Shown here one piece after another: positions 8,382 through 32,000 of a stretch of DNA of 32,000 nt (within the stretch, counting starts at the first letter, position 1; the number at the start of each line of letters is the position of its first letter). Source of the DNA: Faecalibaculum rodentium (lineage in GTDB: Bacteria > Bacillota_I > Bacilli_A > Erysipelotrichales > Erysipelotrichaceae); contig NZ_CP011391.1 of the NCBI RefSeq assembly GCF_001564455.1, positions 2,460,001 to 2,492,000 on the forward strand, given 5' to 3'. The position numbers and the translations under genes are program-made. The notes beneath the pieces were generated by a model. It made no database searches. It was not told the origin of the DNA and saw only the letters and a list, made by a program, of their open reading frames with translations.

Positions 8382-9446
8382 TCAGCGGGAGGAGACCACG
8401 CGTTTTGTCAAGCGCTTCACCCGCCGCCACAAGCCGATGAGGGGATGAAACTTTTCGGAAATCATGGCGGATTTCTCGATGAACAGCTCCACCATCACGA
8501 GGATCGCCAGCATGACGAAGAACCCCAGGTTGCGGTTGAGCAGGTACACATAGGCCGAGAGCCCGAACAGGGCGGTGAGACCGCACATGATCAGCACGGT
8601 GTTGCGGTGACCGTACCGGGCCATGAGCAGGTGATGGATGTGGCTTTTGTCCGCCTGGGAAAACTTCATGCCCTTGAGGGTGCGCCGCAGGATCGCCGAG
8701 AGGGTGTCAATGATGGGAATCATGAGCAGCAGGATGGGCAGGGCCAGCGTCATGATGGTGCTCGACTTGAATCCCATGAGCGAGATGGCGGAAATCATGA
8801 ATCCCAGGAACAGGGACCCGCAGTCGCCCATGAAGATGCTCGCGGGGTAGGAATTGAACACCAGAAACCCCAGGGTGGCGCCGGCAAGCAGGAAGCAGAT
8901 GGTGATCACGTCCGGACGCCGGTCGATCATGGCCAGGCAGCCGGTGACCACGAGGATGATCACGGACATCCCGCCCGCCAGGCCGTCCAGGCCGTCAATG
9001 AGGTTCACCGCATTGGTGATGCCGCAGACCCAGAGGATCGTGAAGAGAAAGGACACGAATCCGAAATCGATGCGGATCCCGAAAGGCAGCCGCAGTACAT
9101 CCACCTGCACGCCGCTCCAGATCAGCACCAGGGCGGCAACGGCTTCAAAGGCCAGCTTCACCGGCGGCTTGATGTCGATGAGGTCATCCACCAGGCCGGT
9201 GAAAAACATGACGCTGCCTCCCGCCAGGATCCCGAACACCGCCCGGTCGGCGCGGACAAACACGGCGGCGCAGATCATGAACGCCAGGTAAATGGCCACG
9301 CCCCCAATGCGGGAAATCAGGCCGTGGTGGACCGTTCGCTTGTTTTCATGGGCGTAGGCTTTGCAGATCACGGAATACTGCTTCACCAGCGGCGTGAGGA
9401 CAACGGAAATCGCGAACGGCAGCAGATACAGACTGGCTTCAGGCAT
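8382..9446 (-). CDS. tagO: Glycosyltransferase family 4, undecaprenyl-phosphate GlcNAc-1-phosphate transferase (WecA/TagO/MraY superfamily)
   Basis: 354 aa polytopic membrane protein with 'GLVDDLIDI' and 'ITNAVNLIDGLDGLAGG' motifs. Confidence 0.85.
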   Translation of the reverse strand: MPEASLYLLPFAISVVLTPLVKQYSVICKAYAHENKRTVHHGLISRIGGVAIYLAFMICAAVFVRADRAVFGILAGGSVMFFTGLVDDLIDIKPPVKLAFEAVAALVLIWSGVQVDVLRLPFGIRIDFGFVSFLFTILWVCGITNAVNLIDGLDGLAGGMSVIILVVTGCLAMIDRRPDVITICFLLAGATLGFLVFNSYPASIFMGDCGSLFLGFMISAISLMGFKSSTIMTLALPILLLMIPIIDTLSAILRRTLKGMKFSQADKSHIHHLLMARYGHRNTVLIMCGLTALFGLSAYVYLLNRNLGFFVMLAILVMVELFIEKSAMISEKFHPLIGLWRRVKRLTKRVVSSR

Positions 9447-10479
9447 GCTCTTCCTCCCTTCTCACGGGATACCCCAGGGTCTGGACCAGGGTCTGGGGCA
9501 GACCGAAGCAGGCCGACAGGCTGCCGCGCAGACTCAGCCCTTCCTTCATGAACAGCTCCCGGGCTTCCATGCTCGCGGCCTCCAGCAGGCTGCCGGTCCA
9601 GGACACGATCTGGTCAATGACCGGCTTCATGCCCGGCCACAGTGCCGCGGCCCGGATCTGTACCGTTTCATACTCGCCGTAGCGGTTGAGGCCACTGACT
9701 TCCAGCAGGGGATTGGTACCCTTCCAGAGTGCCTGACTGGCCGACAGCCGCAGGGCGCGGGCGTCTTCCAGGTGCAGCAGGCAGCGGGTCCTGCGGGCCA
9801 CGAGCTGCTGGATGTCTTCATCCATGGCCCGGCCGCCGAACAGGATGTACTGGCTTTTCACCAGCCGCCCGCCGGCAAAGAGACCCAGTTCCGTTCCGGC
9901 GTATCCTGTCTGGATCACCAGTGCCGTGCCGGACTCCTGGAGCCTTGGCACAAACCGCACCTTCCTGGCCCCGGCTTCCAGGCCGGTCTTTTTCCACAGT
10001 TCCTTTCCCTCCTCCGTGATGTCCAGACGTGTGCGGACCTGCAGACAGGGGGACAGAAACCGGTCGAAGGCCCCTGCCTGGCGAAGCAGCAGGCCGATGA
10101 GTGCCGCGCTTTCACGCCCCGGGCGTTCCTGGTCAAAGGGCCGCCACACCTTGTAGTCCCGTGGTCCTTCGTACAGGCGCTTCATGGCATCTTCTCCCAG
10201 CCAGATCTGCCCGGAGGCATCTTCCCCGGCCAGCGACCGGATGGACACCTGCACCGGACGGGCTTCGACGCCGGCTTCTTTCGGGGATGCAGGGGAGTCT
10301 GTCGACTGAGCAGAGGCAGCCGGGACCGGGCCCGCCACACTCTGTGTCTCTCCGGCTGTTTCTTTTGCGTCCCCGGACTCTGACCGGCCGCTGCCGACAG
10401 TCCCCGTGCCGGTCTTCGGGCAGGTCATGGTGCACACATCCGCCCCGGGATCCAGGGTGTACCAGGTATCGAATATCAT
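9439..10479 (-). CDS. Divergent MreB/Mbl-like actin-fold protein with degenerate nucleotide-binding motifs
   Basis: 346 aa. By-eye colinearity with MreB, for example 'LGEDAMKRL', 'GTALVIQTGYAGTELGLFAGGRLVKSQYILFGGRAMDEDI' and 'GLSLRGSLSACFGLPQTLVQTLGYPV'. A low-complexity G/S/T/A/P insert lies near the N-terminus. Overlap-coupled to both neighbours. Confidence 0.72.
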   Translation of the reverse strand: MIFDTWYTLDPGADVCTMTCPKTGTGTVGSGRSESGDAKETAGETQSVAGPVPAASAQSTDSPASPKEAGVEARPVQVSIRSLAGEDASGQIWLGEDAMKRLYEGPRDYKVWRPFDQERPGRESAALIGLLLRQAGAFDRFLSPCLQVRTRLDITEEGKELWKKTGLEAGARKVRFVPRLQESGTALVIQTGYAGTELGLFAGGRLVKSQYILFGGRAMDEDIQQLVARRTRCLLHLEDARALRLSASQALWKGTNPLLEVSGLNRYGEYETVQIRAAALWPGMKPVIDQIVSWTGSLLEAASMEARELFMKEGLSLRGSLSACFGLPQTLVQTLGYPVRREEEHA

Positions 10480-10685
10480 CGTGCGAACCCGTTGAGCACC
10501 GTCAGGGACAGGATGGCCTGGCTGGCGAGATAGCCCATGATCAGCGACACGAGAAAGAGGAAAATCAGAGCTTTCTGCCGGTCGGGATGCTTCCAGAGGG
10601 CATCAAACCGCATGCCCCACAGGGCGTAGAACGACAGCCCGAAGCAGACCAGGAACAGGGAAAACTGCAGGAATGCGTAACTCAT
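10476..10685 (-). CDS. DUF1146-family small membrane protein
   Basis: 69 aa with two hydrophobic helices flanking 'WGMRFDALWKHPDRQKA', as in YwzB-type DUF1146 proteins. ATGA overlaps on both sides. Confidence 0.78.
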   Translation of the reverse strand: MSYAFLQFSLFLVCFGLSFYALWGMRFDALWKHPDRQKALIFLFLVSLIMGYLASQAILSLTVLNGFAR

Positions 10686-11572
10686 GACGACTCCCTCCCC
10701 GATCCTGCGGATCCGGATTCCGCGGGTGCCCCGGCATGCACCACCTGCACAAAGGGATGACGGTGCCGCAGCATGAGGGCCGCGTTTTCCAGCACCTCCT
10801 GGTCCACGGAAAAGCCCATCATGGCCGACCCAGAGCCGGTCATCATGACCCGCACCAGACCCAGTTCCGTCATTTCCTCCCGAAGCTGCTCCAGTTCCGG
10901 AACCAGGGCCATGGCCGCGGGCTCCAGACTGTTGACCATTGTCGACAGCAGCAGCTCGGCGTTGTGCTTGTGCAGGGCTTCCTCCACCAGGTCTATGTCA
11001 TGCAGCCCCGTTTCGGTTTCCTCCCATCGGGCAAACGCCTCCGGTGTGCTGACTCCTGCCTCGGGCTTCACCAGCAGCAGGTCGAAGCCCCAGTCCGTGT
11101 CGATGGGCCGGATCAGTTCCCCGATTCCGCGGACGCGGCTTGTGCGCCCGGCAATGCAGAAGGGGACATCCGCCCCCACCCGGGTCCCGAGTTCATAGAG
11201 ACGCTCTTCGCCAAGTCCCAGGCCTTCCAGCCGGTTCACGGCTTTGATCACCGCCGCGGCATCCGCACTGCCCCCGGCCAGACCCGCCTGTTCCGGGATC
11301 CGCTTGGTGATGTGAATGTCATACCCGCCGATGGTTCTTCCCTGGCAGGAGGCCTCTTCCCGCAGGATTGCCATGGCCTTCGTGACCGTATTGGTTTCCG
11401 GCAGAGGTGCATCGCACGTGATGCGGTCCGTATCTGCGCCGTTGGGTGTGATGTCGATCGTGTCCTTCAGCGACAGCGGGGCCATCACCATGTCCAGTTC
11501 GTGGTATCCATCCGCCCGCCGACGCACCACGTCAAGGGCGAGATTCACCTTTGCATTTGCGTATATCTTCAT
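10682..11572 (-). CDS. ispE: 4-diphosphocytidyl-2-C-methyl-D-erythritol kinase
   Basis: Start set at 'MKIYANAKVNLALDV' (ATG 11572). GHMP kinase motif 'IPEQAGLAGGSADAAA'. The longer track ORF to 11728 overlaps rsmA and looks spurious. Confidence 0.92.
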   Translation of the reverse strand: MKIYANAKVNLALDVVRRRADGYHELDMVMAPLSLKDTIDITPNGADTDRITCDAPLPETNTVTKAMAILREEASCQGRTIGGYDIHITKRIPEQAGLAGGSADAAAVIKAVNRLEGLGLGEERLYELGTRVGADVPFCIAGRTSRVRGIGELIRPIDTDWGFDLLLVKPEAGVSTPEAFARWEETETGLHDIDLVEEALHKHNAELLLSTMVNSLEPAAMALVPELEQLREEMTELGLVRVMMTGSGSAMMGFSVDQEVLENAALMLRHRHPFVQVVHAGAPAESGSAGSGRESS

Positions 11573-13014: not shown

Positions 13015-13887
13015 CTACACCGTCCCGTGCGGGGCGACAAATCCTTCCCCGTGCACCGAGTTGACATCGCTGACGATGATGAATGCATTCCGGTCAATGG
13101 CCAGCACTCCCTGCTCAAGCTGCGGATACTGCGTGCGGGCAATGACACACATCACCACCGGCCGGCTGGTTTCCGTATAGCCGCCTTTGGAGTCCAGCAG
13201 CGTCACGCCGCGTTCCAGGTCCTCCAGAACAAACCGCCGCACAGCCTCCCACTGATCCGTGATGATCATCACATTCTGCGAAGGCTGGGATCCCAGCATG
13301 ATGGTGCGGTTGATCATGTATCCCGACACGAAGACCGAAATCAGCCCCACGAGCGCCGCCTGCAGACCGTAACTGGCAATGCCCAGGGCCACCGTCAGCC
13401 CATCCACCAGCATCACCGCTTCCCCCTCCTTGATGGGGGTGTACTTGGCCAGGATCAGTGCCGGAATGTCCATCCCGCCGGTCGAGGCACCGGTCCGGAA
13501 CACGAGACCCAGCGCCAGACCACAGAGAAATCCGGAGTAGATCGAAGCCACCCAGGACTCCATAATAAAATACCCCGGGGGGAAACAGGTCTGGGCCACC
13601 CAGGTGAACAGACTGACAAACAGCGGATAGAGAATCGCCGAGAGCAGGGAATTCATGGCGAATTTCTTCCCCAGCATCACAGCACCCAGGATATACAGTC
13701 CAATGGTCAGGCCGTTGATCATGGCAACGGTGGGAATGTGCAGAAGGGGATACAGTGCCACAGACACACCGGCAACACCGCCGGTCAGGATTTCATTGGG
13801 GACGATGAGAAAGGCCACGGCCGCCGCAAGCATCAGGTTGCCTGTCACGACCAGACCCAGTGAAACGAACTTCTTCATGTTCTTCAT
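13015..13887 (-). CDS. YitT-family membrane protein (C-terminal DUF2179)
   Basis: 290 aa polytopic protein with a soluble C-terminal domain 'VMCVIARTQYPQLEQGVLAIDRNAFIIVSDVNSVHGEGF'. The true start may be the second ATG at 13878. Confidence 0.85.
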   Translation of the reverse strand: MKNMKKFVSLGLVVTGNLMLAAAVAFLIVPNEILTGGVAGVSVALYPLLHIPTVAMINGLTIGLYILGAVMLGKKFAMNSLLSAILYPLFVSLFTWVAQTCFPPGYFIMESWVASIYSGFLCGLALGLVFRTGASTGGMDIPALILAKYTPIKEGEAVMLVDGLTVALGIASYGLQAALVGLISVFVSGYMINRTIMLGSQPSQNVMIITDQWEAVRRFVLEDLERGVTLLDSKGGYTETSRPVVMCVIARTQYPQLEQGVLAIDRNAFIIVSDVNSVHGEGFVAPHGTV

Positions 13888-13894
13888 TATAGCA
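13886..13894 (-). promoter_or_regulatory. Extended -10 promoter TGCTATAAT for the yitT operon
   Basis: The minus strand reads TGCTATAAT-GAAGAAC-ATG (ATG at 13878). The hexamer overlaps the first ATG at 13887. No SD is present. Confidence 0.5.
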
Positions 13895-14017
13895 TTGATG
13901 GCAGGACTGCCATGGCCGGACAGCCGGAATCCCGCTGCCTGTGCGCACCCGGGCTGCGGCTTTTCTTTCTCCGCTTTCCCTGGGATTCCCCGCTTCCCTC
14001 CGTTTGCCTGTCATTTT

Positions 14018-14055
14018 CCTTTGTTTCCTTATATAACCTTTGTTTCCTTATATAA
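14018..14055. repeat. Perfect tandem duplication, 2 x 19 bp (CCTTTGTTTCCTTATATAA)
   Basis: 14018-14036 is identical to 14037-14055. It lies between the DUF2075 stop and the yitT promoter region. Confidence 0.92.
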
Positions 14056-14093
14056 AAGGAATGCGGCTGATTCCTGCCACATTCCCGTACCCT

Positions 14094-16070
14094 TCAGTTT
14101 CTGTCTCCTGTTTCCCTCCCTGCCGATACTGGCAGTCCCGGCAATGATGCGGATGACGGGGATGCGGCTGGTGCGAACAGGGCCTGCAGGTGCCTGCCCA
14201 GGGCCCTGTCCGCACACCAGACAAAGCACCCTTTTCTGGCCCGTGTCAGCAGCACCCGGTAGGTGTTTCGGATCACATCGTCCGCTTCTTCCTGTTCTTC
14301 CATCCGCAGCCGCACCCTTGCCTGCAGGCCACCCATGAGCCGGTCACTGACAGACCTGGCTCTCCAGTCCGTCTGCACCCGGTCATGCCGGTACACCAGA
14401 TCCGGGCCGATGAACACACCGGTCCAGTCGGCTTCCTGCCCCTGGATGTCCTGCACCGAATCCACCAGCCTGTATCCCGCGGGCGCCGGAGCCTGCCGGC
14501 AGTCCGTTTTCCAGATGCCCCGAAACCCCGGGCCGATGTGAAAACCCCGCCCCTCTGGTTCAGGCTTCTGCCTGGACTGCGGCCAGCACCTGCCCGCACA
14601 CAGCCGGACAGAGTCACCGGCTGCTTTTTTCCTGTCCAGCGCCCGCACCACTGCCTGGGGTGTGGGCAGGATATGAAATTCATATCCCGAACAGACGGGG
14701 ACTGCATCTGTCGACTGCAGCGGCTCCCCGGCACGATCCAGGACTTTGTCCACCCATGCCGGGAACCCGGCTCCCCCGGCACAGCGCAGCTGCATCCTCA
14801 GCGGCGGGAGCTCCCGGAGGGTTTTTCGCCTTTGCGGATGGGTCCGGTTATGCAGCGCCACACAGCGCCGGATGTCAGCCAGGGTGCATCCATCGTCCGG
14901 ACTGACACGCTGTGACTCATCCAGAAACAGAACCAGGTGCCGGCTCTGATCTGCCAGCCAGTCCAGCATGGGTGCCCGAAGGCAGCAGTCCAGATCCGGG
15001 GACAGGACAGCCTTCGCCGGGAGGATCGGCCTGTCCCGGCGCGTGAGGCGATGGGCCTCATCCACCAGAATCACCTCGGCCTGGCGGTGGACAGGGGGCC
15101 CGAAGACCGCCAGAGGCTGCAGTGTCTGAAATACAGCCGGCGGCAGACCCCCAGCCGTGTCCAGCTGGTCCCGCATGTAATGACGCAGGCCGGCGGTTCC
15201 AAAGGTCAGCAGGCAGGATTGCCCGGCGTGCAGGCAGTGAAAGAGCAGCTGCAGGGCCAACGCGGTTTTTCCCGTGCCGCAGCCGCCGGTCACCACCATG
15301 AGCGAAGGCCGGCTGTCTTTGAGAATGGACAGGATCTGTGCAAAGAGTGGCTGACAGAGTGCGGGCAATCCGGAACTGCCCCCGGTTTCCGGCCGGATCA
15401 TATCCGTCAGCAGCCGTCGCAGTCCGGGACCGGGACGAACCGGGGCGCTCTGCAGAAGCCCGAGCAGATCTCCGGCGGGGGCCGGTCCCAGGGATGACTG
15501 CAGGCATCGGATCAGTGCCCCGCCATCACCCGCAAAAAAGAGGGAAACAGATCCCGAACCGGGGACCTCAAGGGGCAGTTCTCCCTGTTGCCGGTCCATA
15601 TTGTGGAGCCAGACCGCTCCATGCAGGGACAGGGCCCTCTCCTGCAGGACCTGGTTCCAGCTGGCCAGCTCGCTGACATATCCGGCCGCCTGCAGACAGG
15701 GATGCAGGACTGCCTGCAGGCAGCCGCCGGTCCGGGTCATCACCCGGCAGGGATCTGATGACGGACTGACCTGGCGCCACTGTTTCAGTTCCAGCACCAC
15801 GAGACCAGCGGCACCGGCCAGGATCACATCCGCCCGTCTGCCGGAAAGCGGCATGCGAACCTCCAGTCCGACCTGGATGCCGGGATCCAGGGAAGTGCCC
15901 GACAGAAGCCCGGCCAGCGCAGAGAGGGAATTCTGCCAGGACCTGTATTCACCTTCGGTGACAGGATACCCGGCGGCCACAAGCCTGGTTTCCAGCAGAC
16001 CTGCCAGCCGGCTGCCGTCTTGTGCCCGGGCGATGAATTCCTGCAGGGTGAACCGGCAGAGACTTTCCAT
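14094..16070 (-). CDS. DUF2075 / Schlafen-group-3-type P-loop helicase with N-terminal PD-(D/E)xK-like nuclease module
   Basis: 658 aa with RBS AAAGGAGAAACC. N-terminus 'SWQNSLSAL...GLEVRMPLSGRRADVILAG..VVLELKQW' (E..D..ExK). Walker A GGCGTGKT at 15264-15287. Walker B 'ILVDEAHRL' (DEAH at 15051-15062). C-terminal 'YRVLLTRARKGCFVW'. Confidence 0.85.
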   Translation of the reverse strand: MESLCRFTLQEFIARAQDGSRLAGLLETRLVAAGYPVTEGEYRSWQNSLSALAGLLSGTSLDPGIQVGLEVRMPLSGRRADVILAGAAGLVVLELKQWRQVSPSSDPCRVMTRTGGCLQAVLHPCLQAAGYVSELASWNQVLQERALSLHGAVWLHNMDRQQGELPLEVPGSGSVSLFFAGDGGALIRCLQSSLGPAPAGDLLGLLQSAPVRPGPGLRRLLTDMIRPETGGSSGLPALCQPLFAQILSILKDSRPSLMVVTGGCGTGKTALALQLLFHCLHAGQSCLLTFGTAGLRHYMRDQLDTAGGLPPAVFQTLQPLAVFGPPVHRQAEVILVDEAHRLTRRDRPILPAKAVLSPDLDCCLRAPMLDWLADQSRHLVLFLDESQRVSPDDGCTLADIRRCVALHNRTHPQRRKTLRELPPLRMQLRCAGGAGFPAWVDKVLDRAGEPLQSTDAVPVCSGYEFHILPTPQAVVRALDRKKAAGDSVRLCAGRCWPQSRQKPEPEGRGFHIGPGFRGIWKTDCRQAPAPAGYRLVDSVQDIQGQEADWTGVFIGPDLVYRHDRVQTDWRARSVSDRLMGGLQARVRLRMEEQEEADDVIRNTYRVLLTRARKGCFVWCADRALGRHLQALFAPAASPSSASLPGLPVSAGRETGDRN

Positions 16071-16319
16071 GGTTTCTCCTTTCCGCTGTGATCTTCATGA
16101 CCCGGCTGCCAGTCCTGCCGTGCGGCTGCCCGGAGCCGGTCACACAGCCTGGCTTTGCGGCAGCATGAAGCGCTTTCATATGCGTCCAGAGGCCGATACG
16201 CAAGGAGTTTGCCTGCAATTGTCTGAAATTTTATGACTCTTTTCTGACAAACTGTGTGATTTTTTGGGACTATCCGCTACAATAGGCCTTGTTCAGAACC
16301 AGAAAGGAGACTCTGACAA

Positions 16320-25202: not shown

Positions 25203-25605
25203 GCAAGGAAGCAGAAAGATCCGCCGCTTCCGACAGGGACCGAAAAGGTGCCAGACGCGTCAGACAAGACGTTAAAATCGACAGAGTGCAAAGAAACTCA
25301 AAGGGAAACAGAGATCCGGAAAAAGGGCCGAAGTTTCCAGCCTTGAAAAAATCCCTCCGATTCAGACATCCGAAAGAAAAAATACAAAATGATTCGAAAA
25401 GGATTGGAAAAAGGAGAGACACAGGACAGGCCAAAGGATGCAATCTAAACGGCTAAGTGGTTGAAAGATACCGGAAAGCATGAAGAAAGCAGAGAAGCTG
25501 TCCGAACCAGTCAAGGATAAACGTCTGAAACAATCAGCCAGCACCTGATCTCCCTGGACATACAAGGATCCGGGGATGATTCAGAAAGAATCATCCTTTG
25601 TTTTT
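25203..25605 (+). ncRNA. Candidate ~400-nt purine-rich non-coding transcript (orphan unit)
   Basis: Bounded by the extended -10 promoter and a strong terminator. Strongly A+G-rich on the + strand. No + strand ORF of 60 aa or more; only 19- and 22-aa ORFs without a usable SD. Many GGA/AAGGA motifs. Confidence 0.3.
25574..25605 (+). terminator. Intrinsic terminator
   Basis: GGATGATTC-AGAAA-GAATCATCC followed by TTTGTTTTT. Confidence 0.82.
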
Positions 25606-25720
25606 GGAACAGCGAAGGACCGCCTGACAGCGAATGCAGGCGGTCCTTCTGGCGTGATGGACTCGGAAGAGAGAACAGGAAATGACAGAGAATCAAAAGA
25701 ACTGTGGGTCAATTAAAGAA

Positions 25721-25746
25721 AATTGACTCAATCGATTGAGTCAATT
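25721..25746. promoter_or_regulatory. Perfect 26-bp palindrome AATTGACTCAATCGATTGAGTCAATT (operator-like), with extra GTCAATT half-sites
   Basis: Perfect dyad verified base by base. An additional GTCAATT lies at 25708-25714 and TCAATT at 25755-25760. Confidence 0.85.
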
Positions 25747-25786
25747 CAGCCGAATCAATTCAAATTGTACTTTGGGGAGATTCTGC

Positions 25787-25849
25787 ATGGAAAGAATCAA
25801 AAACGTTCTGATGTCAGACGGATTCGATGGTACAGAGACTACACCATAG
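25787..25849 (+). CDS. Possible 20-aa micro-ORF (MERIKNVLMSDGFDGTETTP)
   Basis: GGGGAG lies 7 nt upstream of the ATG. The ORF sits between the palindrome and a terminator. No homology evidence. Confidence 0.2.
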   Translation: MERIKNVLMSDGFDGTETTP

Positions 25850-25887
25850 CGACCCATTCTGACAGAGCTGTACAGGAATCAGCATCA

Positions 25888-25913
25888 GGGGGCTGAATCC
25901 AGCCCCCTTTATT
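25888..25913 (+). terminator. Intrinsic terminator
   Basis: GGGGGCT-GAATCC-AGCCCCC followed by TTTATT. Confidence 0.75.
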
Positions 25914-25982
25914 GTGGGCAATCACCATCGCTTATGAGTGAATCATGGGAAAACGATGATGGTGACTGCTTATGTAAATAGA

Positions 25983-26651
25983 TTATCTCCGTGGCATATA
26001 ATAACGGCCGCTTTTGTTGTAGTACGAAAAATGATTTGAAGCATAAGAAACACTCAATGATACAGATGCAGTTCCTTCGACGCCAGCGCCTACAGTTCCT
26101 CCCACTGTAGTGGTTCCATTGTCAAAGAAATCTCCATTAACGATCCAGTCAATTGTCTGAGCATCCACCAGATTCAGATATACGGTTCCTGCAAACTGCT
26201 TTGTTATACCACGACTGGAATCATATCTATTCAAGGAAATATTCATAATTTGAACACAGGTCATCTGGCTGCCTTCATAATCCGCTGATTTATGATAAAA
26301 CTGGATCCCTGCTGGAGCATATCCAGTCATGGCTGGAATCGGAATCGTAAGAGTTCTGTAGGTAGCAGCCCGCAAAGAAGCAAGAATTTCATTTTTCGTA
26401 TCGATCGAACCTGTTGATTGCTTAAATTCCTTCAAGTTATTTCGTTCAAGTTCCACCATTTCGTTAATTACTTCATTTGGTGTTTTGTTCTGTTCCATAC
26501 AGATCCTGTTAACCATTTCATCGAATGTCATAGTCTCATCAATGGATTCTTGAAAATTCACTGGTTTCGATTCTGTACAGCCTAATAAATGATGGCTGCT
26601 AACAGCAGCCAGTCCCATACTCATGATTATTGTCAAAAATTTCCCTTTCAT
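25983..26651 (-). CDS. Putative lipoprotein, unknown family (222 aa)
   Basis: Start at 'MKGKFLTIIMSMGLAAVSSHHLLGC' with lipobox LLGC, preceded by AAGGAAG. Low G+C. The C-terminal half is beta-rich and G/T/S-rich. Confidence 0.75.
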   Translation of the reverse strand: MKGKFLTIIMSMGLAAVSSHHLLGCTESKPVNFQESIDETMTFDEMVNRICMEQNKTPNEVINEMVELERNNLKEFKQSTGSIDTKNEILASLRAATYRTLTIPIPAMTGYAPAGIQFYHKSADYEGSQMTCVQIMNISLNRYDSSRGITKQFAGTVYLNLVDAQTIDWIVNGDFFDNGTTTVGGTVGAGVEGTASVSLSVSYASNHFSYYNKSGRYYMPRR

Positions 26652-26707
26652 AATGATTCTTCCTTTGCTTAATGAAGAAATCAAACTCCATTACTTATTT
26701 TAATACA

Positions 26708-27057
26708 CTATCTGGGATTTACCGTTACCCATATACATTTATTTGTGGAAACTCCATTAATGCTGATATAGACACTGACAATCTTGCTTCCAGGTGTCAT
26801 CAGTGCACCAGTTACTGTCACGGCAGCACTGCTAGATTCCAAAATCCATCCACGACAACTCCAATTACCATTAGCGTAAGTCATGGTAGCTGCAACTTTA
26901 ACATAATATCTATTTACTGATCCTGCATTCTCTCCATACCAGGTTTCGACACTATATGGTTCTATTTCGGTTTCTTCTGCACAGACTGCCATCGGAGATA
27001 ACCCAATACCTGAAGTAGCAATAATTCCTGCCAGTATTATTTTTTGAGAGTATTCAT
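26708..27057 (-). pseudogene. Small secreted protein, unknown family, split by a frameshift at an A6 run
   Basis: A strong RBS (AAAGGAGAGGAAATT) precedes ATG 27057, which reads MNTLKK then TAA (27039-27037). The -1 frame continues IILAGIIATSGIGLSPMAVCA-EETE... to 26708. Joined, it is a 116-aa protein with a textbook signal peptide. Confidence 0.6.
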
Positions 27058-27091
27058 AATTTCCTCTCCTTTCTGGCTCTACAATATTGCA

Positions 27092-29518
27092 TCAATCTTT
27101 CAAAAACTTTTCATTTCTTCTGTTAACCCAGAACCCGGCTATTGCCAAGACTACGGTCATACCCAGAACTGCAGGAAGCAGCCACAAGCTGATCTGGTGA
27201 TCGAGCTGATAGATTCCCACAGCCTCATTGTTGACAAAGAGAAAAGGCATTACACTCCCCAGCAAATCTCCATTGGTTGGAAATCGGCTGTGAATCGCCT
27301 CAACCAGGTTACCTGCCAGTAAAATTCCGGTCGCCAACAAAAACAGCAGCAAACCCCACACAGAGCAAATCGCTTTGTCAGCCTGTGACAATCGGGCACC
27401 CGCCAGGATCAGACATTGTTTCCAGTCTGCCAGCTGATTATGCAATCTTCCAGTTGCAGAAAGGATAAAGAAACTCAGGGACAAGAACAAAGCAGCTGTC
27501 AAAACACCGAAAAGCGTTTCCTGACTGTCAAGAAGGTCCATCACTCTCTGTTTAATAGCCCTCTCATTGGTCATATACACTGCTTCCCTGGCTGCTATGG
27601 CAGAGACCGACACTTGAACTTCGTCTTTCTGCTCATCAGAAAGAGTCAGGTGCAGACGATTCACAGGATATTCAAAAAAATCCGGAGCAGCATATATTGT
27701 ATAAGCCATGGACAGTCCCATCATCTCATCAAATCTCATCCATTCAGGCGGTTTTCGCAAAATGCCAGCAATTCTGGTCTTTACTTCTTTCCCGAAAGGA
27801 TCCTGCAGCAGAATTGTGTCTCCAGAACGATATCCTCCCTCACTCTTTACCTCTATTGAATTGGATAAATCATCAGCCAGCCACAGTTTGCCGTCATAAA
27901 TAGAGACATCCGGTGCATACAGAATAATGCCCTCTCCGCTGTTCCAGAGCTCCTCATCAAATCCTTCCACTTCTGTCAGGTCTATATCTTCCCGACTGAT
28001 AATGGGAACCATTTGCCAGTTCCTCAAGTCTTCTGCCATCAATTCCGATGGATACAGCAGACTGTTCCGGGATTCGTTGGAAATTGTCGGATCATTACGC
28101 AGCTGCTCCAGCAGTGATCCTTCTTCAACAGGTATGGCCCATCCATACATCTGGACAAAACCAGATTCCACATGAGAAAACCGACTGTCATCTTTCAGCT
28201 TTTCTGCTATTCTTTCCAGACTGTCATCTGTTCTGAAAGTCTGAAGTCCTTCAGGCTCCAGAGACAAAATGAAATCCGGCTTCTCCTGCAGCCACTTTTG
28301 TAACTGCCAAGTTTCTGTCAACGCCAGGGTCGTTCCGAAGAATACCGCAGCCAGAAAGACTGCAGCAATCAGATTTCCGGCTATGCTTCGGTTCCGGCTT
28401 TCCAGAAATCGCAGACCAAGACGGAAAGCTGTGACCCGTTTCATCGGCTTCCAGTGTCTTTGAGTTTCCGGAAGGTCTCCTCCACTGGCATTTTCCACTG
28501 CCGGAATCTCTTTGACATCCTTGGCCAGCAGACAGCACAGGATCAGAATCTCCAGAATCAGAGCTCCTGCTGTTCCCAGAATCACCGGCAACGGCCAGTT
28601 CATCAAAGTCGCGATTGTCAGAGAAATCAGAGCAGCTGTTCCGGCAGCCTGAATAATGGTTCTGATCAGGTCTTTTCGGATCTTTCGTTCTGACACACCC
28701 AATCCCTTCAGTACTTGAATATCATGTCTGCGGCTTTTCAGCCACTTACGGAAGACGACCATAATCAGGAAAGCGGACCCTCCCAGAGAAAATACCATCA
28801 ACATGGACCATGCAGCATTTTCCGGTGCAAAAGGTTCCCACAATTCCTTTACATGTACATTTCGAATCAGCAGCGGCATAGCCTGTTTCAAATCATCTAT
28901 TACTTCAGAGTTTTCACCTCTGATAAACACATTATCCCTGACAGATTTCAGTCCCGATCCAGGTCCTGTGAAAATGGCTGGCTGACTGTCACCACTGATC
29001 CAGGAGGTAGTGTAATTATTAATTATACCTGTCACTGTAAATTGTCGCTGACTTCCCTGAATTGTTCCGGTAATAGTTTCCCCCGGCTCATAGGCCATTC
29101 CAAGTCGGTCAAGAACCCAGTTTTCCACTGCGATTTCATCTCCTCTTTCCGGTAATCTACCTTGAAGGAGGCTGAAATTTGCCAATTTGTAAAAGGCACC
29201 ATCAGCACAGCCGGTTACAAATGTCAGGCCATTCGTTTCCAGCAACCCGAATATTTCCTGAGTTCCCACTTCTTCCAGCAATTCATGGGAATTCAGAATC
29301 TGACGGTCTTTTACACTGATATCCATCCTCACCCCCTGCCACAGACCATATTGCATCCTGGCAGTCTCCAGTCTTTTGTTCCACAGACCGGTCTGAACAG
29401 CGACAGCTGTCGTAAGGCACAGGAATCCGCAAAGGAATATAAGAAAAAAGCGCAGCTTCAAAGAGCGATTTTGTGAAAAGTACTGGAATTCAGATTTGCT
29501 CATTCTGAATTCTCCCAT
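27092..29518 (-). CDS. ABC transporter permease, tandem MacB/FtsX-type (two extracytoplasmic domains)
   Basis: 808 aa with a repeated TM-large loop-3TM architecture. Follows and overlaps the ATPase gene. An alternative start is at 29503. Confidence 0.88.
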   Translation of the reverse strand: MGEFRMSKSEFQYFSQNRSLKLRFFLIFLCGFLCLTTAVAVQTGLWNKRLETARMQYGLWQGVRMDISVKDRQILNSHELLEEVGTQEIFGLLETNGLTFVTGCADGAFYKLANFSLLQGRLPERGDEIAVENWVLDRLGMAYEPGETITGTIQGSQRQFTVTGIINNYTTSWISGDSQPAIFTGPGSGLKSVRDNVFIRGENSEVIDDLKQAMPLLIRNVHVKELWEPFAPENAAWSMLMVFSLGGSAFLIMVVFRKWLKSRRHDIQVLKGLGVSERKIRKDLIRTIIQAAGTAALISLTIATLMNWPLPVILGTAGALILEILILCCLLAKDVKEIPAVENASGGDLPETQRHWKPMKRVTAFRLGLRFLESRNRSIAGNLIAAVFLAAVFFGTTLALTETWQLQKWLQEKPDFILSLEPEGLQTFRTDDSLERIAEKLKDDSRFSHVESGFVQMYGWAIPVEEGSLLEQLRNDPTISNESRNSLLYPSELMAEDLRNWQMVPIISREDIDLTEVEGFDEELWNSGEGIILYAPDVSIYDGKLWLADDLSNSIEVKSEGGYRSGDTILLQDPFGKEVKTRIAGILRKPPEWMRFDEMMGLSMAYTIYAAPDFFEYPVNRLHLTLSDEQKDEVQVSVSAIAAREAVYMTNERAIKQRVMDLLDSQETLFGVLTAALFLSLSFFILSATGRLHNQLADWKQCLILAGARLSQADKAICSVWGLLLFLLATGILLAGNLVEAIHSRFPTNGDLLGSVMPFLFVNNEAVGIYQLDHQISLWLLPAVLGMTVVLAIAGFWVNRRNEKFLKD

Positions 29519-30170
29519 CCTCCATCACCAGCATCCGGTCTGCCTGTTTGGCCAGCGCCAGGTCATGAGTGACCATGATTACAGTCTGATTGAACATTCT
29601 CTGACACTCCCGGAACAAAGAGAACACCTTACGAGAGTTTTCGGAGTCCAGGTTCCCCGTAGGTTCGTCCGCCAGGATCAGATCCGGTTTCACAGAGAGT
29701 GCCCGGGCAATCGCAATCCGCTGCTGCTGACCGCCCGAACATTCACGGGGATATTTGTTCTCCAGCTTTTTGATATCCAGTCTGCTCTTCAGCTCCTCAA
29801 GAAACTCTTTATCAGGACTGCTCCCATTGACTTCGAAAGGAAGCCTCAGATTCTCTTCCACTGTCAGTTCCTGTACCAGAGAATAGAACTGGAAGACCAA
29901 ACCTATATGAGACAGGCGAAAATCAGACCGCTGTTCTTCATTCATTTCAGTAAGTATGGTTTTACCTATTTCAACAGTTCCTTCCTCTGGAGCAATCAGT
30001 CCGGCTATACAGTGCAGCAATGTAGATTTCCCGGAGCCGCTTCGCCCGATGATTGTGACAAACTCCCCAGGCTCAACTTTAAAAGAACAACCCTGCAAAG
30101 CATTGACAGGCGTCGTTTTCATGTTCCAGGTCTTGTGGATATCACAGATTTTTACGGCATATTCTTCCAT
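29490..30170 (-). CDS. ABC transporter ATP-binding protein (MacB/BceA-like)
   Basis: 226 aa with Walker A GRSGSGKST, signature CSGGQQQR, Walker B LILADEPT and H-loop VTHD. Confidence 0.93.
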   Translation of the reverse strand: MEEYAVKICDIHKTWNMKTTPVNALQGCSFKVEPGEFVTIIGRSGSGKSTLLHCIAGLIAPEEGTVEIGKTILTEMNEEQRSDFRLSHIGLVFQFYSLVQELTVEENLRLPFEVNGSSPDKEFLEELKSRLDIKKLENKYPRECSGGQQQRIAIARALSVKPDLILADEPTGNLDSENSRKVFSLFRECQRMFNQTVIMVTHDLALAKQADRMLVMEDGRIQNEQI

Positions 30171-31207
30171 GGTTTTACCTCCGAATTCATTGAATCAAAG
30201 GACTCTTTCATAAACATTGCAGTATCGGATTCCCATGGATGCACAGGCAAGAACAATCGCGCATTAAATCGGCCATCTTCCAGCGTAAGTGACAAATCCC
30301 CTCCGTGAAGTCTGGCTGCAGTTCTTGCCAGATCCAGTCCTATACCATAGTGACTGTCATCTGACGTTTCATATCGATTCATGGAGGGAAGAATCCCACT
30401 TTTTGTTTCATTGCTCACTGTTAACTCCAGACCTGTCTCTTGCTCAACAAGAGCTATCTGCACCTGCTGGCAATTCCTGCAGGCGTTGACCAGAAGAGTT
30501 TCCACTCCTTCCCTCAGAATCCGGGAATCCCCATACAGCCATCCAGGATCAAGCTTTGTCACAATCCGGACTTTATACCCATCAAGTGAAGGCAGTATGT
30601 CCTGTTCCAGCACTTCCTTCAGTGAAAAGAGCTTCATATCCAGAAGGCGATTATTGTAATGAATTCGGGAAGACTGTATAAATTTGTCCAGCTGTGAATC
30701 CATCAGTGCAAAAGATTCTTCAGCCGGTTCATACAAACCTTCGAGTTCCAGTCGCAGTGACAGACTGTTCAAAGATGATTTGAGCTGATGAGCAAAATTT
30801 TCCTACTCCTCCCTGCGAACCTTCATATCTCTGTCCTGTGCTCGAAGCAGTCCTTCCAGCTCCGTTACACGTTTCTGAAGAGCAGTATATTCGTGATGCC
30901 AATCCATCTTCTTCTTACGCTGTTGCCTGCAGCTGACTGCTGCAGATATCAGACCTGTCAGCAGAATAACTTCAGTTATCACAAAACGGCCGTCAAACAG
31001 GGAACTCACAGTTCTCCAGAAAGCATAATCCCCATATCCCTGTTGTATTGCAGATATCCGGATGGAAGAATCCAGATGAAAAAGCGCCTGAACCGGATCC
31101 GGTGCCATGGCTGTCAAATACAGCCGGCTGCCAATCCCATAAACCCAAAAGAAAAAGCTCAATATAAGAACCACAACCCAGAGTGTCATAAGGATATGTC
31201 GTTTCAT
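30152..31207 (-). pseudogene. Sensor histidine kinase interrupted by one in-frame TAG (30805-30803)
   Basis: ORFs 30803-31207 (2 TM plus coiled linker) and 30152-30772 (HATPase_c: 'LLVNACRN', 'HYGIGLDLAR') are in the same frame. Reading through gives ...VRREE*ENFAHQLKSSLNSL..., so the H-box lies just after the stop. Confidence 0.8.
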
Positions 31208-31845
31208 CGTTCCTCCAGACGATACCCGGTATTTTTCCTTCCGATGATATTCAGATCAAAAGGTTCCAGTTTCTTTTTCAGTGTGGACAGACGGGAACTG
31301 AAGGTTTCCGGAGAAATGTCGCGTCCTGTGGTCTGCCGGACAGCGCGCATCAAAGTCTCGGCCTGACAGGGATGCAGAATCAGCTGCCGGAGGATGGCGG
31401 TTTCGGTTCCTGAAAGATCAAGCTGCAGACTGTCTTTTTTCAGACAATGCGTATCTGGATACAGGACTGTTTCTCCCAGATGCAGGGCAGATCTGTACCC
31501 GCTTCTGTGAAGCAGGGCCTCTACTTTTTTCCTGAGGACCGCCAGTCTGACGGGCTTGACGATATAGTCATCACAGCCGGATTCAAAAGCCTCCAGCATG
31601 GTGGTCTCCATTCCATCACTGGAAAGAAACAGAATCGGGACATTGCTGACAATCCTGGCGGCTCTGGCAATATCCAGTCCGCTGCCATCTGGAAGTCTCA
31701 CGTCCAGAAGCAGAAGATCCCATCCCTTCTCACACTCTGCCAGTCCCTGTCTGCAGGTACAGCAGATTTGGCACTCCTCCGGATTCAGGGCTTCCCGAAT
31801 CACAGAAGCCAGTTCTCTGTTGTCCTCCACAATGCAAATTCTCAT
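31204..31845 (-). CDS. OmpR-family response regulator
   Basis: 213 aa. Receiver domain (VEDN, LLLLDVRLPDGSG, YIVKP) plus C-terminal winged helix (...LSTLKKKL...GRKNTGYRLE). RBS AAGGAGATAAGAATT. ATGA overlap with the kinase. Confidence 0.92.
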   Translation of the reverse strand: MRICIVEDNRELASVIREALNPEECQICCTCRQGLAECEKGWDLLLLDVRLPDGSGLDIARAARIVSNVPILFLSSDGMETTMLEAFESGCDDYIVKPVRLAVLRKKVEALLHRSGYRSALHLGETVLYPDTHCLKKDSLQLDLSGTETAILRQLILHPCQAETLMRAVRQTTGRDISPETFSSRLSTLKKKLEPFDLNIIGRKNTGYRLEER

Positions 31846-32000
31846 AATTCTTATCTCCTTAACTCATCATAAAATACAGTGGTGATTCTTCCAACTATCC
31901 TTTAAGTTTTCCGGAATATCTCCCGGATTTTTTCATTTTCCCATTCTTCATTTTCGCAAATCTGCCTTTCAGAAAAATTGCAGACCAGGATTTCCGCCTG

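Follow-up and report, generated by a model that had tools for sequence, protein, structure and literature searches.

A predicted nuclease-helicase resident at a housekeeping locus of Faecalibaculum, and its relation to Nhi-like defence proteins

Results

The DNA analysed here is a stretch of 32,000 nucleotides (nt) from Faecalibaculum rodentium (contig NZ_CP011391.1, positions 2,460,001 to 2,492,000; hereafter the window), and the gene in question is a single minus-strand open reading frame (ORF) of 658 amino acids (aa) between yitT and a purine permease gene (Table 1). Its product is an exact sequence match to WP_067559884.1 / AMK55856.1 of F. rodentium, currently annotated only as a 'DNA/RNA helicase domain-containing protein'. 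A sequence-only reading of this DNA had proposed that the ORF is a stand-alone fusion of a PD-(D/E)xK nuclease to a DUF2075/Schlafen-type helicase, wedged between housekeeping units as a candidate single-gene defence system. We find the ORF to be as described, and the coordinates reported for Walker A, DEAH, E70/D81/E94-x-K96 and the motif VI-like segment all check by arithmetic on the ORF.

The gene has a strong ribosome-binding site of its own, as had been claimed, and an intrinsic-terminator-like hairpin, absent from the earlier description, begins 8 nt past its stop codon; with both signals in place, the gene is a monocistronic, self-contained unit. Its flanks of 249 nt (16071-16319) and 206 nt (13888-14093) contain just unsupported short or antisense ORFs, so that they can indeed be called ORF-free, and a partner gene in Faecalibaculum was ruled out on these grounds. 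The proposal of a stand-alone unit is thus borne out by the ORF list and the terminator scan. As Rfam has no match in the window or in either flank of the gene, no riboswitch or known RNA accounts for the ORF-free flanks.

Table 1. Features of the helicase gene and its surroundings (window positions; residue numbers refer to the 658-aa product)
Feature	Position	Strand	Basis
Coding sequence, 658 aa, ATG start	14094..16070	-	ORF list
Shine-Dalgarno GGAAAGGAG, 5 nt before ATG	16076..16084	-	read from sequence
Putative NERD-like PD-(D/E)xK nuclease core, aa 39-160	15591..15956	-	AlphaFold2, Pfam, BFVD
Putative catalytic residues E70 (15861-15863), D81 (15828-15830), E94-L-K96 (15783-15791)	15783..15863	-	conservation
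Q127-x-x-x-Y131, helix after E-x-K strand, in family motif 'HPSYQAxxY'	15678..15692	-	alignment
Linker, poorly conserved, aa 161-250	15321..15590	-	orthologue alignment
SF1B-type helicase, PF09848 (SLFN-g3_helicase / DUF2075), aa 256-621	14208..15305	-	Pfam
Walker A GGCGTGKT, aa 262-269	15264..15287	-	sequence
Walker B / motif II DEAH, aa 337-340	15051..15062	-	sequence
Motif VI-like segment RVLLTRARKGCFVW, aa 605-618	14217..14258	-	sequence
Intrinsic-terminator-like hairpin: 11 bp, 6 G-C pairs, 8-nt loop, then TTTTATAT	14049..14086	-	terminator scan and sequence
yitT promoter-like site, TG-extended TATAAT	13886..13913	-	promoter scan

The C-terminal part of the protein matches PF09848 at E=3.5e-50 (171.7 bits, gathering threshold 24 bits) over model positions 2-354 of 354, and this full-length coverage confirms the DUF2075 architecture proposed earlier. 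The domain is a superfamily 1B (SF1B)-type motor. In an alignment of 62 relatives, G262, G265, G267 and K268 of Walker A and D337 of the DEAH motif are invariant, while E338, A339 and H340 are conserved in at least 90%; near the C-terminus, the motif VI-like string VLLTRARKGCFVW (aa 606-618) contains L607 and R610, both invariant in the family. Among the orthologues from four Faecalibaculum lineages, R605, T609 and R610 are invariant, as are the Walker motifs except for E338D and H340Q in one lineage. Mean identity of these four orthologues is 0.28 in the linker, 0.47 in the nuclease core and 0.57 in the RecA2 lobe (aa 531-632), and parts of the linker have a low predicted local distance difference test score (pLDDT) in AlphaFold2 models. 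A PDB sequence search with the whole protein returned only a chance KaiC P-loop match. A full-length AlphaFold2 model (14-sequence alignment, pLDDT 67.6) was matched by Foldseek to SLFN11, DSH9 (deep-sea helicase), RecD2, Dna2, Upf1 and Dda at E-values of 1e-10 to 1e-6, and the RNA helicases Upf1, Ighmbp2 and Sen1 are also found among its matches.

Motif and topology evidence strongly indicates that the N-terminal ~160 residues form a NERD-like PD-(D/E)xK nuclease, and matches in domain and fold libraries are suggestive of the same. E70, D81, E94, K96, W98, P124 and Y131 are invariant in the alignment of 62 relatives, where Q127 is conserved in at least 90%, and E70, D81, E94 and K96 are also invariant in the four Faecalibaculum orthologues. 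The Q127-x-x-x-Y131 pair is reminiscent of RecB-type nuclease motif IV. An AlphaFold2 model of aa 1-240 (pLDDT 78, predicted template-modelling score 0.80) places a helix at 39-57, strands at 66-72, 79-85 and 89-96, a helix at 124-138 and a strand at 148-155. This predicted alpha-beta-beta-beta-alpha-beta order is that of the PD-(D/E)xK fold, with D81 on strand 2 and E94-x-K96 on strand 3, and together with the residue conservation it upholds the nuclease-fold claim of the sequence-only reading.

No Pfam model reaches its threshold on the first 250 residues, and the window protein's own NERD match (E=0.025, 15.5 bits) stays under the 22.1-bit cut-off. When 35 aligned N-terminal cores (34 family members and the core of a Bacillus cereus Nhi-like protein, see below) were scanned alone, 15 matched Pfam NERD, the best at 4.4e-5, with scattered single matches to HSDR_N, PDDEXK_3/9 and Mrr_cat. 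In BFVD, the fold of this domain is matched best by a phage protein with a 'nuclease-related domain' (NERD; E=4.7e-3, probability 0.91).

In an exhaustive hidden Markov model (HMM) search covering 1.84 billion cluster representatives, 3045 relatives scored at E<=1e-3 and 337 at E<=1e-30; the majority are 600-660 aa long and align from end to end, and one typical family member has more than 8000 relatives at E<=1e-20. A word-index homologue search, queried first with the window protein and afterwards with the alignment of 62 relatives, retrieved only three Faecalibaculum clusters, as this kind of search falls short of the rest of the family that the exhaustive search reached.

Three proteins with verified roles in defence provide the closest comparisons. 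Nhi (SERP2475) of Staphylococcus epidermidis joins a PD-(D/E)xK nuclease to an SF1B helicase overlapping DUF2075, and its immunity needs both the nuclease and the helicase activity (Bari et al. 2022; 10.1101/776245). AbiO of Lactococcus has a PD-(D/E)xK restriction-endonuclease-like N-terminus and an SF1B helicase resembling that of Schlafen (SLFN) group 3 (PMC13064643). Millman et al. (2022) verified a further system, SG141 or 'Nhi-like', which has the architecture of Nhi and no detectable identity to it (10.1101/2022.05.11.491447). From the supplement to that work we recovered 399 of the 611 residues of the Nhi-like protein of B. cereus FSL H8-0482. The profile of the 62 relatives aligns with this protein in hhalign at a probability of 99.2% (E=9e-20, 330 columns), collinearly over nuclease, linker and first RecA lobe and with the E/D/E-x-K residues in register, and the window protein alone matches it in BLASTP at E=1e-10 (22% identity). 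In an alignment of family members that includes this protein, E70, D81, E94, K96 and the Q-x-x-x-Y columns are invariant. The proposed link to Nhi-type defence proteins thus holds.

The same B. cereus fragment, about 65% of the protein, matches the PADLOC profile PDC-S41 at E=8.8e-76 (253.6 bits, profile positions 8-406), which means that Nhi-like and PDC-S41 are one family; the name 'PDC-S41' is not mentioned in the literature that we searched. PDC-S41 is also the best PADLOC match of the window protein, at E=3.3e-15 (53.4 bits, in two stretches). Among the 62 relatives, PDC-S41 matches all 62, AbiO 54 and Nhi 50, none of them strongly (best 1e-22). The Pfam and PADLOC check suggested earlier therefore yields a full match to PF09848 and partial PADLOC matches that give no membership of a named family. 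A score of 53 bits on PDC-S41, together with absence from the homologue table of Millman et al., places the window protein in a separate family. It thus belongs to a large uncharacterised sister family within the superfamily of Nhi-like/PDC-S41, being a profile-level relative of Nhi-like/PDC-S41, AbiO and Nhi and, by score, a member of none, although all available evidence suggests that it would work as Nhi-like proteins do.

Nhi-like/PDC-S41 shares with the window gene the format of a single gene of ~610-660 aa and the succession of an E...D...ExK nuclease with its Q-x-x-x-Y helix, a linker and a DUF2075 helicase, but is only 19-22% identical to it, and the window gene sits at a genus-fixed housekeeping locus with no defence island. 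Nhi is likewise a single-gene system with an N-terminal PD-(D/E)xK nuclease and an SF1B helicase; however, its profile matches the window protein only from Walker A to Walker B, and homologues of Nhi are often plasmid-borne and near defence genes. Nhi also has an extra, poorly conserved glyoxalase-like C-terminal domain (10.1101/776245). AbiO has the two-domain architecture of the window protein, but is plasmid-encoded and toxic at high copy number.

Schlafens are fast-evolving immunity-associated genes. Those of group III share the PF09848 helicase with the window protein, and human SLFN11 is its top solved-structure match (E=2.5e-10), but their nuclease is the Schlafen-core tRNA endoribonuclease (AlbA_2, E-x4-E-x-K) and not a NERD/PD-(D/E)xK domain. 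The bacterial Schlafens described recently share that RNase domain and not the PF09848 helicase (PMC13056530). In one Faecalibaculum lineage, we also noticed a gene that combines AlbA_2 with HATPase_c_4 some 10 kb away from the helicase gene (L004:1-344); its AlbA_2 is a domain of the Schlafen RNase type, unrelated to PF09848.

Elsewhere, the neighbourhoods of the family are the usual company of defence genes. By tblastn, members lie on plasmids or chromids of Streptomyces, Halomonas, Hymenobacter, Priestia, haloarchaea and Methanosphaera and in three phage records. The Priestia plasmid copy is located between an ABC-three-component system, a restriction endonuclease and a type I restriction-modification system, and a Hymenobacter canadensis plasmid (L145:7806-11792) carries two tandem DUF2075 paralogues preceded by a restriction endonuclease/methyltransferase pair and a DUF4747 gene. 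The copy in a Lachnospiraceae genome is surrounded by toxin-antitoxin pairs (BrnT/A and ParE/Phd). In that genome (L049:9633-10004, 4-nt overlap) and on the Priestia plasmid (L144:7417-7746), a small gene for a MazG-like nucleotide pyrophosphohydrolase is found directly upstream, suggesting a recurrent two-gene module; the MazG-like gene is absent from the Faecalibaculum locus.

Orthologues in three further Faecalibaculum lineages (P0002, P0003 and P0004; 49%, 46% and 39% identical to the window protein) occupy the same site, with a divergent NCS2 purine permease gene on one side and yitT-rnmV-ksgA-ispE on the other. All ten F. rodentium alleles examined, the window's included, carry the gene at this site (they were drawn from 22 contigs read, representing 8 distinct contexts), and none of the four lineages is without it. 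Public data contain more than 300 sequence variants. The four orthologues are mutually closest, at 35-49% identity against at most 31% to any outsider, which argues for one acquisition in the Faecalibaculum ancestor, then vertical descent with retention between yitT and the permease gene. The gene has long been resident here, evolving very fast, and did not arrive in a recent mobile insertion.

These observations undo the parts of the sequence-only reading that concerned origin. A G+C contrast had been taken to suggest separate ancestry. There is indeed a contrast, as segments inside the gene (14401-16200) have a G+C content of 0.64-0.65 and neighbouring genes mostly 0.59-0.61, but the lines of 50% quoted from the neighbours are unrepresentative and another housekeeping stretch (9200-11400) also reaches 0.64. 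At third codon positions the gene is clade-typical (0.72; neighbours 0.70-0.86), so the G+C excess stems from amino-acid composition (Ala, Gly, Arg, Pro) and not from foreign origin, and foreign composition was rejected on this measure. Nor is the gene recently wedged in, given its identical site in four lineages and ten F. rodentium alleles. With a gene conserved at its locus and of clade-typical composition, the island reading fails. Two further candidates for its history were set aside. Direct or inverted flanking repeats that might be insertion scars amount only to chance-level matches of 12-17 nt. Repeated replacement by foreign alleles is disfavoured, the orthologues being mutually closest and their synonymous divergence within the range of the neighbours, a test limited by saturation.

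Between lineages, the flanking proteins are 67-97% identical, the permease among them 94-96%, and the nuclease-helicase 35-49%, a divergence within one genus that is close to the median pairwise identity of the family across phyla (0.33). Non-synonymous divergence (dN) is 0.55 for the helicase gene versus 0.03-0.19 for flanking genes, synonymous divergence (dS) 1.25-1.30 versus 0.5-1.2 with one value of 2.0, and their ratio (omega) 0.42-0.44, the maximum of the locus, versus 0.04-0.22. Catalytic residues of both domains are kept, and most of the change is carried by the N-terminal extension, the linker and the C-terminal tail. Within F. rodentium, nucleotide identity is 98.1-99.6%, like that of the neighbours; variant codons divide into 28 non-synonymous and 33 synonymous (61 in total) for the helicase gene, 1 and 14 for the permease gene and 0 and 10 for ksgA. 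Nine of the ten alleles are intact. The tenth, a metagenome allele (L136:3923-5751, Logan SRR32965984), lacks 148 nt between 14-nt direct repeats; the deletion takes out the D81/ExK region and shifts the frame, leaving ORFs of 136 and 435 aa. Either natural loss of function or an artefact of assembly could account for it; if it is no artefact, the gene is dispensable.

Such figures bring up the possibility that the gene is under relaxed constraint, a former defence or repair enzyme that has no important present function and is drifting to loss. An omega unequalled in the locus, the large fraction of non-synonymous variants in F. rodentium, a deletion pseudogene among the alleles and the near lack of constraint on linker, N-terminal extension and C-terminal tail would all follow from it. 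Against this, the frame has stayed intact over 620-660 codons in four lineages at a dS near saturation (~1.25-1.3), the orthologues are invariant at the catalytic residues of both domains, all F. rodentium alleles but one are intact, and the strong ribosome-binding site and the terminator have been retained. We regard drift to loss as quite unlikely.

Absence of the gene was judged in sister genera reached through the permease; a contig scan based on KsgA, which used very specific peptides, gave one close genome, and the distant Firmicutes that it reached lack the locus. In three sister lineages, with permeases 73-78% identical, addB-addA lies directly upstream of the permease gene (L055:924-6775, L057:1059-6811 and L058-L061:1214-6884, with the permease gene set on the plus strand). 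The sister AddB has a PDDEXK_1 domain and AddA a UvrD helicase with PDDEXK_1, and L055 and L057 also have a divergent yitT-like gene (43-46% identical) on the upstream side of addB. As addBA is thus found between a yitT-like gene and the permease gene, the same slot holds AddAB in the sister genera and the nuclease-helicase in Faecalibaculum, the latter in the opposite orientation. The sequence-only reading had asked whether yitT and the permease gene adjoin each other where the helicase gene is absent; that adjacency was never seen, and the slot is filled otherwise in the sister genera. A tblastn search with AddA and AddB found nothing in the window, and a literature search on AddAB/RecBCD in Faecalibaculum found nothing.

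If the shared slot is more than coincidence, the gene might be a housekeeping, Dna2-like end-processing enzyme that took over the resection of double-strand breaks from AddAB, wholly or partly. Like Dna2 and AddAB, the window protein would unite a PD-(D/E)xK nuclease with an SF1 helicase; its domain order and SF1B motor are those of Dna2, which is among the fold matches of the full model. Presence in all four lineages and all ten F. rodentium alleles would suit a repair gene, and as AddA and AddB are themselves very divergent between sister lineages (37-54% and 26-45% identical, respectively), fast evolution is no bar to such a role. On the other hand, the orientation is opposite to that of addBA, and there is no sequence-level homology to AddA or AddB. 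AddA has an SF1A UvrD-type motor with a C-terminal RecB-type nuclease, and the nuclease domain of Dna2 holds an Fe-S cluster. An identity of 35-49% where the permease retains 94-96%, at an omega of 0.43, is far outside housekeeping behaviour, and a frameshifting deletion allele apparently exists in the wild (L136). In addition, the family is sporadic, on plasmids and in phage records and in neighbourhoods rich in restriction-modification and toxin-antitoxin genes, and its nearest characterised relatives are defence proteins. We consider an end-processing role decidedly unlikely.

A bolder version, in which a single-chain NERD-nuclease/SF1B-helicase of the Nhi-like superfamily displaced AddAB at this slot in the Faecalibaculum ancestor and now serves as a Dna2-like end-resection enzyme, possibly with a dual function in repair and defence like RecBCD, seems to us highly improbable. 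If true, a 'defence-type' protein would have replaced a core recombination machine to which it is not orthologous, and Nhi-like enzymes would gain a mechanistic tie to DNA-end processing.

Discussion

We favour a model in which this gene encodes a chromosomally fixed defence nuclease-helicase of the AbiO/Nhi/Nhi-like kind, and give it a probability of roughly 0.6. It is the best reading because the protein is homologous to a verified defence protein, the family has an island context elsewhere, the protein evolves very fast and there is an apparently natural deletion allele. Of the interpretation offered by the sequence-only reading, the architecture, the stand-alone unit and the link to Nhi are retained, while separate ancestry and recent wedging-in are given up.

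Several observations weigh against a role in defence. The gene is present in every lineage and strain examined, which is unusual for a defence gene, and its locus is no defence island, the neighbours being yitT, rnmV, ksgA, ispE and the purine permease gene; the nearest defence-like gene, for a SoFic-like Fic protein, is ~10.5 kb away. Matches to named defence profiles are partial: the best PDC-S41 stretch covers aa 541-619 (profile positions 558-623 of 657), Nhi (E=2.7e-5, ~20 bits) aligns over aa 249-346 with profile positions 194-279 of 470 (86 positions), and AbiO (E=6.8e-5, ~20 bits) over aa 250-345, the P-loop region only. The Nhi-like homologue table of Millman et al. is without Faecalibaculum, though F. 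rodentium ALO17 was in the genome set. For the N-terminal domain, Foldseek of the model against the PDB gave nothing significant (the best nuclease was Card1, E=0.045), so that the structural check suggested earlier delivered the predicted topology and no significant solved counterpart, and an HMM of this domain had no match among PDB sequences. Finally, fast change at an omega under 1 is as compatible with relaxed constraint as with an arms race.

The gene encodes a single polypeptide in which a variable linker connects a predicted metal-dependent, NERD-like PD-(D/E)xK nuclease at the N-terminus to a DUF2075/Schlafen-group-3 type SF1B helicase at the C-terminus. If it does act in defence, the helicase would use ATP to engage foreign DNA, or intermediates of its replication, and to move along it, leaving the nuclease to degrade the phage or other invading DNA. 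Phage escape from Nhi maps to core phage replication proteins, and Stokar-Avihail et al. found escape from Nhi-like to occur by loss of a phage DNA methylase (10.1101/2022.08.27.505566).

The target may also differ from the one just described. The protein could act on RNA, in the manner of Upf1 or Schlafens, on plasmids or conjugative elements, or as a modification-dependent restriction enzyme. Upf1, Ighmbp2, Sen1 and SLFN11 are among its fold matches, escape from Nhi-like through methylase loss suggests that methylated DNA sensitises phages (10.1101/2022.08.27.505566), and DUF2075 proteins have been reported beside modification-dependent endonucleases (PMC6765204). However, the sequence gives no discrimination between these substrates, and no modification-reading domain is detectable in Pfam scans of the window protein and of the N-terminal cores. 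We think another target unlikely, and this reading is more a refinement of the proposed defence role than a rival to it.

The architecture and the likely mechanism of such enzymes were already known, three relatives having been validated experimentally. New are the placement of the F. rodentium gene in the AbiO/Nhi/Nhi-like superfamily, the equation of Nhi-like with PDC-S41, a large sister family to which PADLOC 2.0 profiles give only partial matches, and an evolutionary mode that is fixed, syntenic and hyper-divergent, in the addBA slot. F. rodentium is a much-studied mouse commensal, and superfamily placement gives this gene a testable function. For defence catalogues, the partial matches of PADLOC 2.0 profiles to the family members examined mark a gap. 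It is unusual for a defence-type gene to be vertically inherited and fixed in a genus, yet diverged as far as its family is across phyla, and the orthologues form a convenient natural series for asking which parts of the enzyme evolve under phage pressure. The position in the addBA slot, if more than coincidence, would link this enzyme class to DNA-end processing.

Other features of the window and the locus

The 350-aa Fic protein (2531-3583, plus strand) matches PADLOC SoFic over its full length at E=1.6e-35; SoFic is a verified single-gene defence system. The fic gene lies beside an ORF with a HipA_C domain (1093-1689, minus strand) in a stretch of lower G+C content (0.45-0.50). Another stretch, 25200-31900, has a G+C content of 0.38-0.50, which differs from the composition of the rest of the window; it encodes an 808-aa FtsX-type permease, an ABC ATPase, a histidine kinase and a response regulator and looks like a BceAB-type peptide-resistance module.

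Non-coding DNA adjoining the helicase gene is unalignable between lineages. The -10 element of yitT is conserved in all four, and the sequence from there to the helicase gene is unalignable. In one lineage (L002:11965-12966, plus strand; also L003 and L005), an extra 333-aa ORF, with no Pfam match and a weak PADLOC match to 'putative invertase' (E=1.3e-4), lies between the helicase gene and yitT, so this intergenic site evidently tolerates insertions. The 5' leader of the permease gene (~165 nt, window ~16155-16319, plus strand), which matches neither a purine riboswitch nor any other Rfam family, is nearly invariant in the four lineages.

Between the helicase terminator and the yitT promoter, the window contains a perfect 19-nt tandem duplication, CCTTTGTTTCCTTATATAA twice, at 14018-14055. 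In several F. rodentium strains (L001, L134, L135, L138), yitT is called with a 332-aa product that has an N-terminal extension that starts near the equivalent of 14014; in the window, the corresponding stretch (~13888-14014) is out of frame, giving a 290-aa yitT product and a 73-aa ORF. YitT of the other Faecalibaculum lineages has 287 aa. The difference in the yitT leader between F. rodentium strains is an indel polymorphism.

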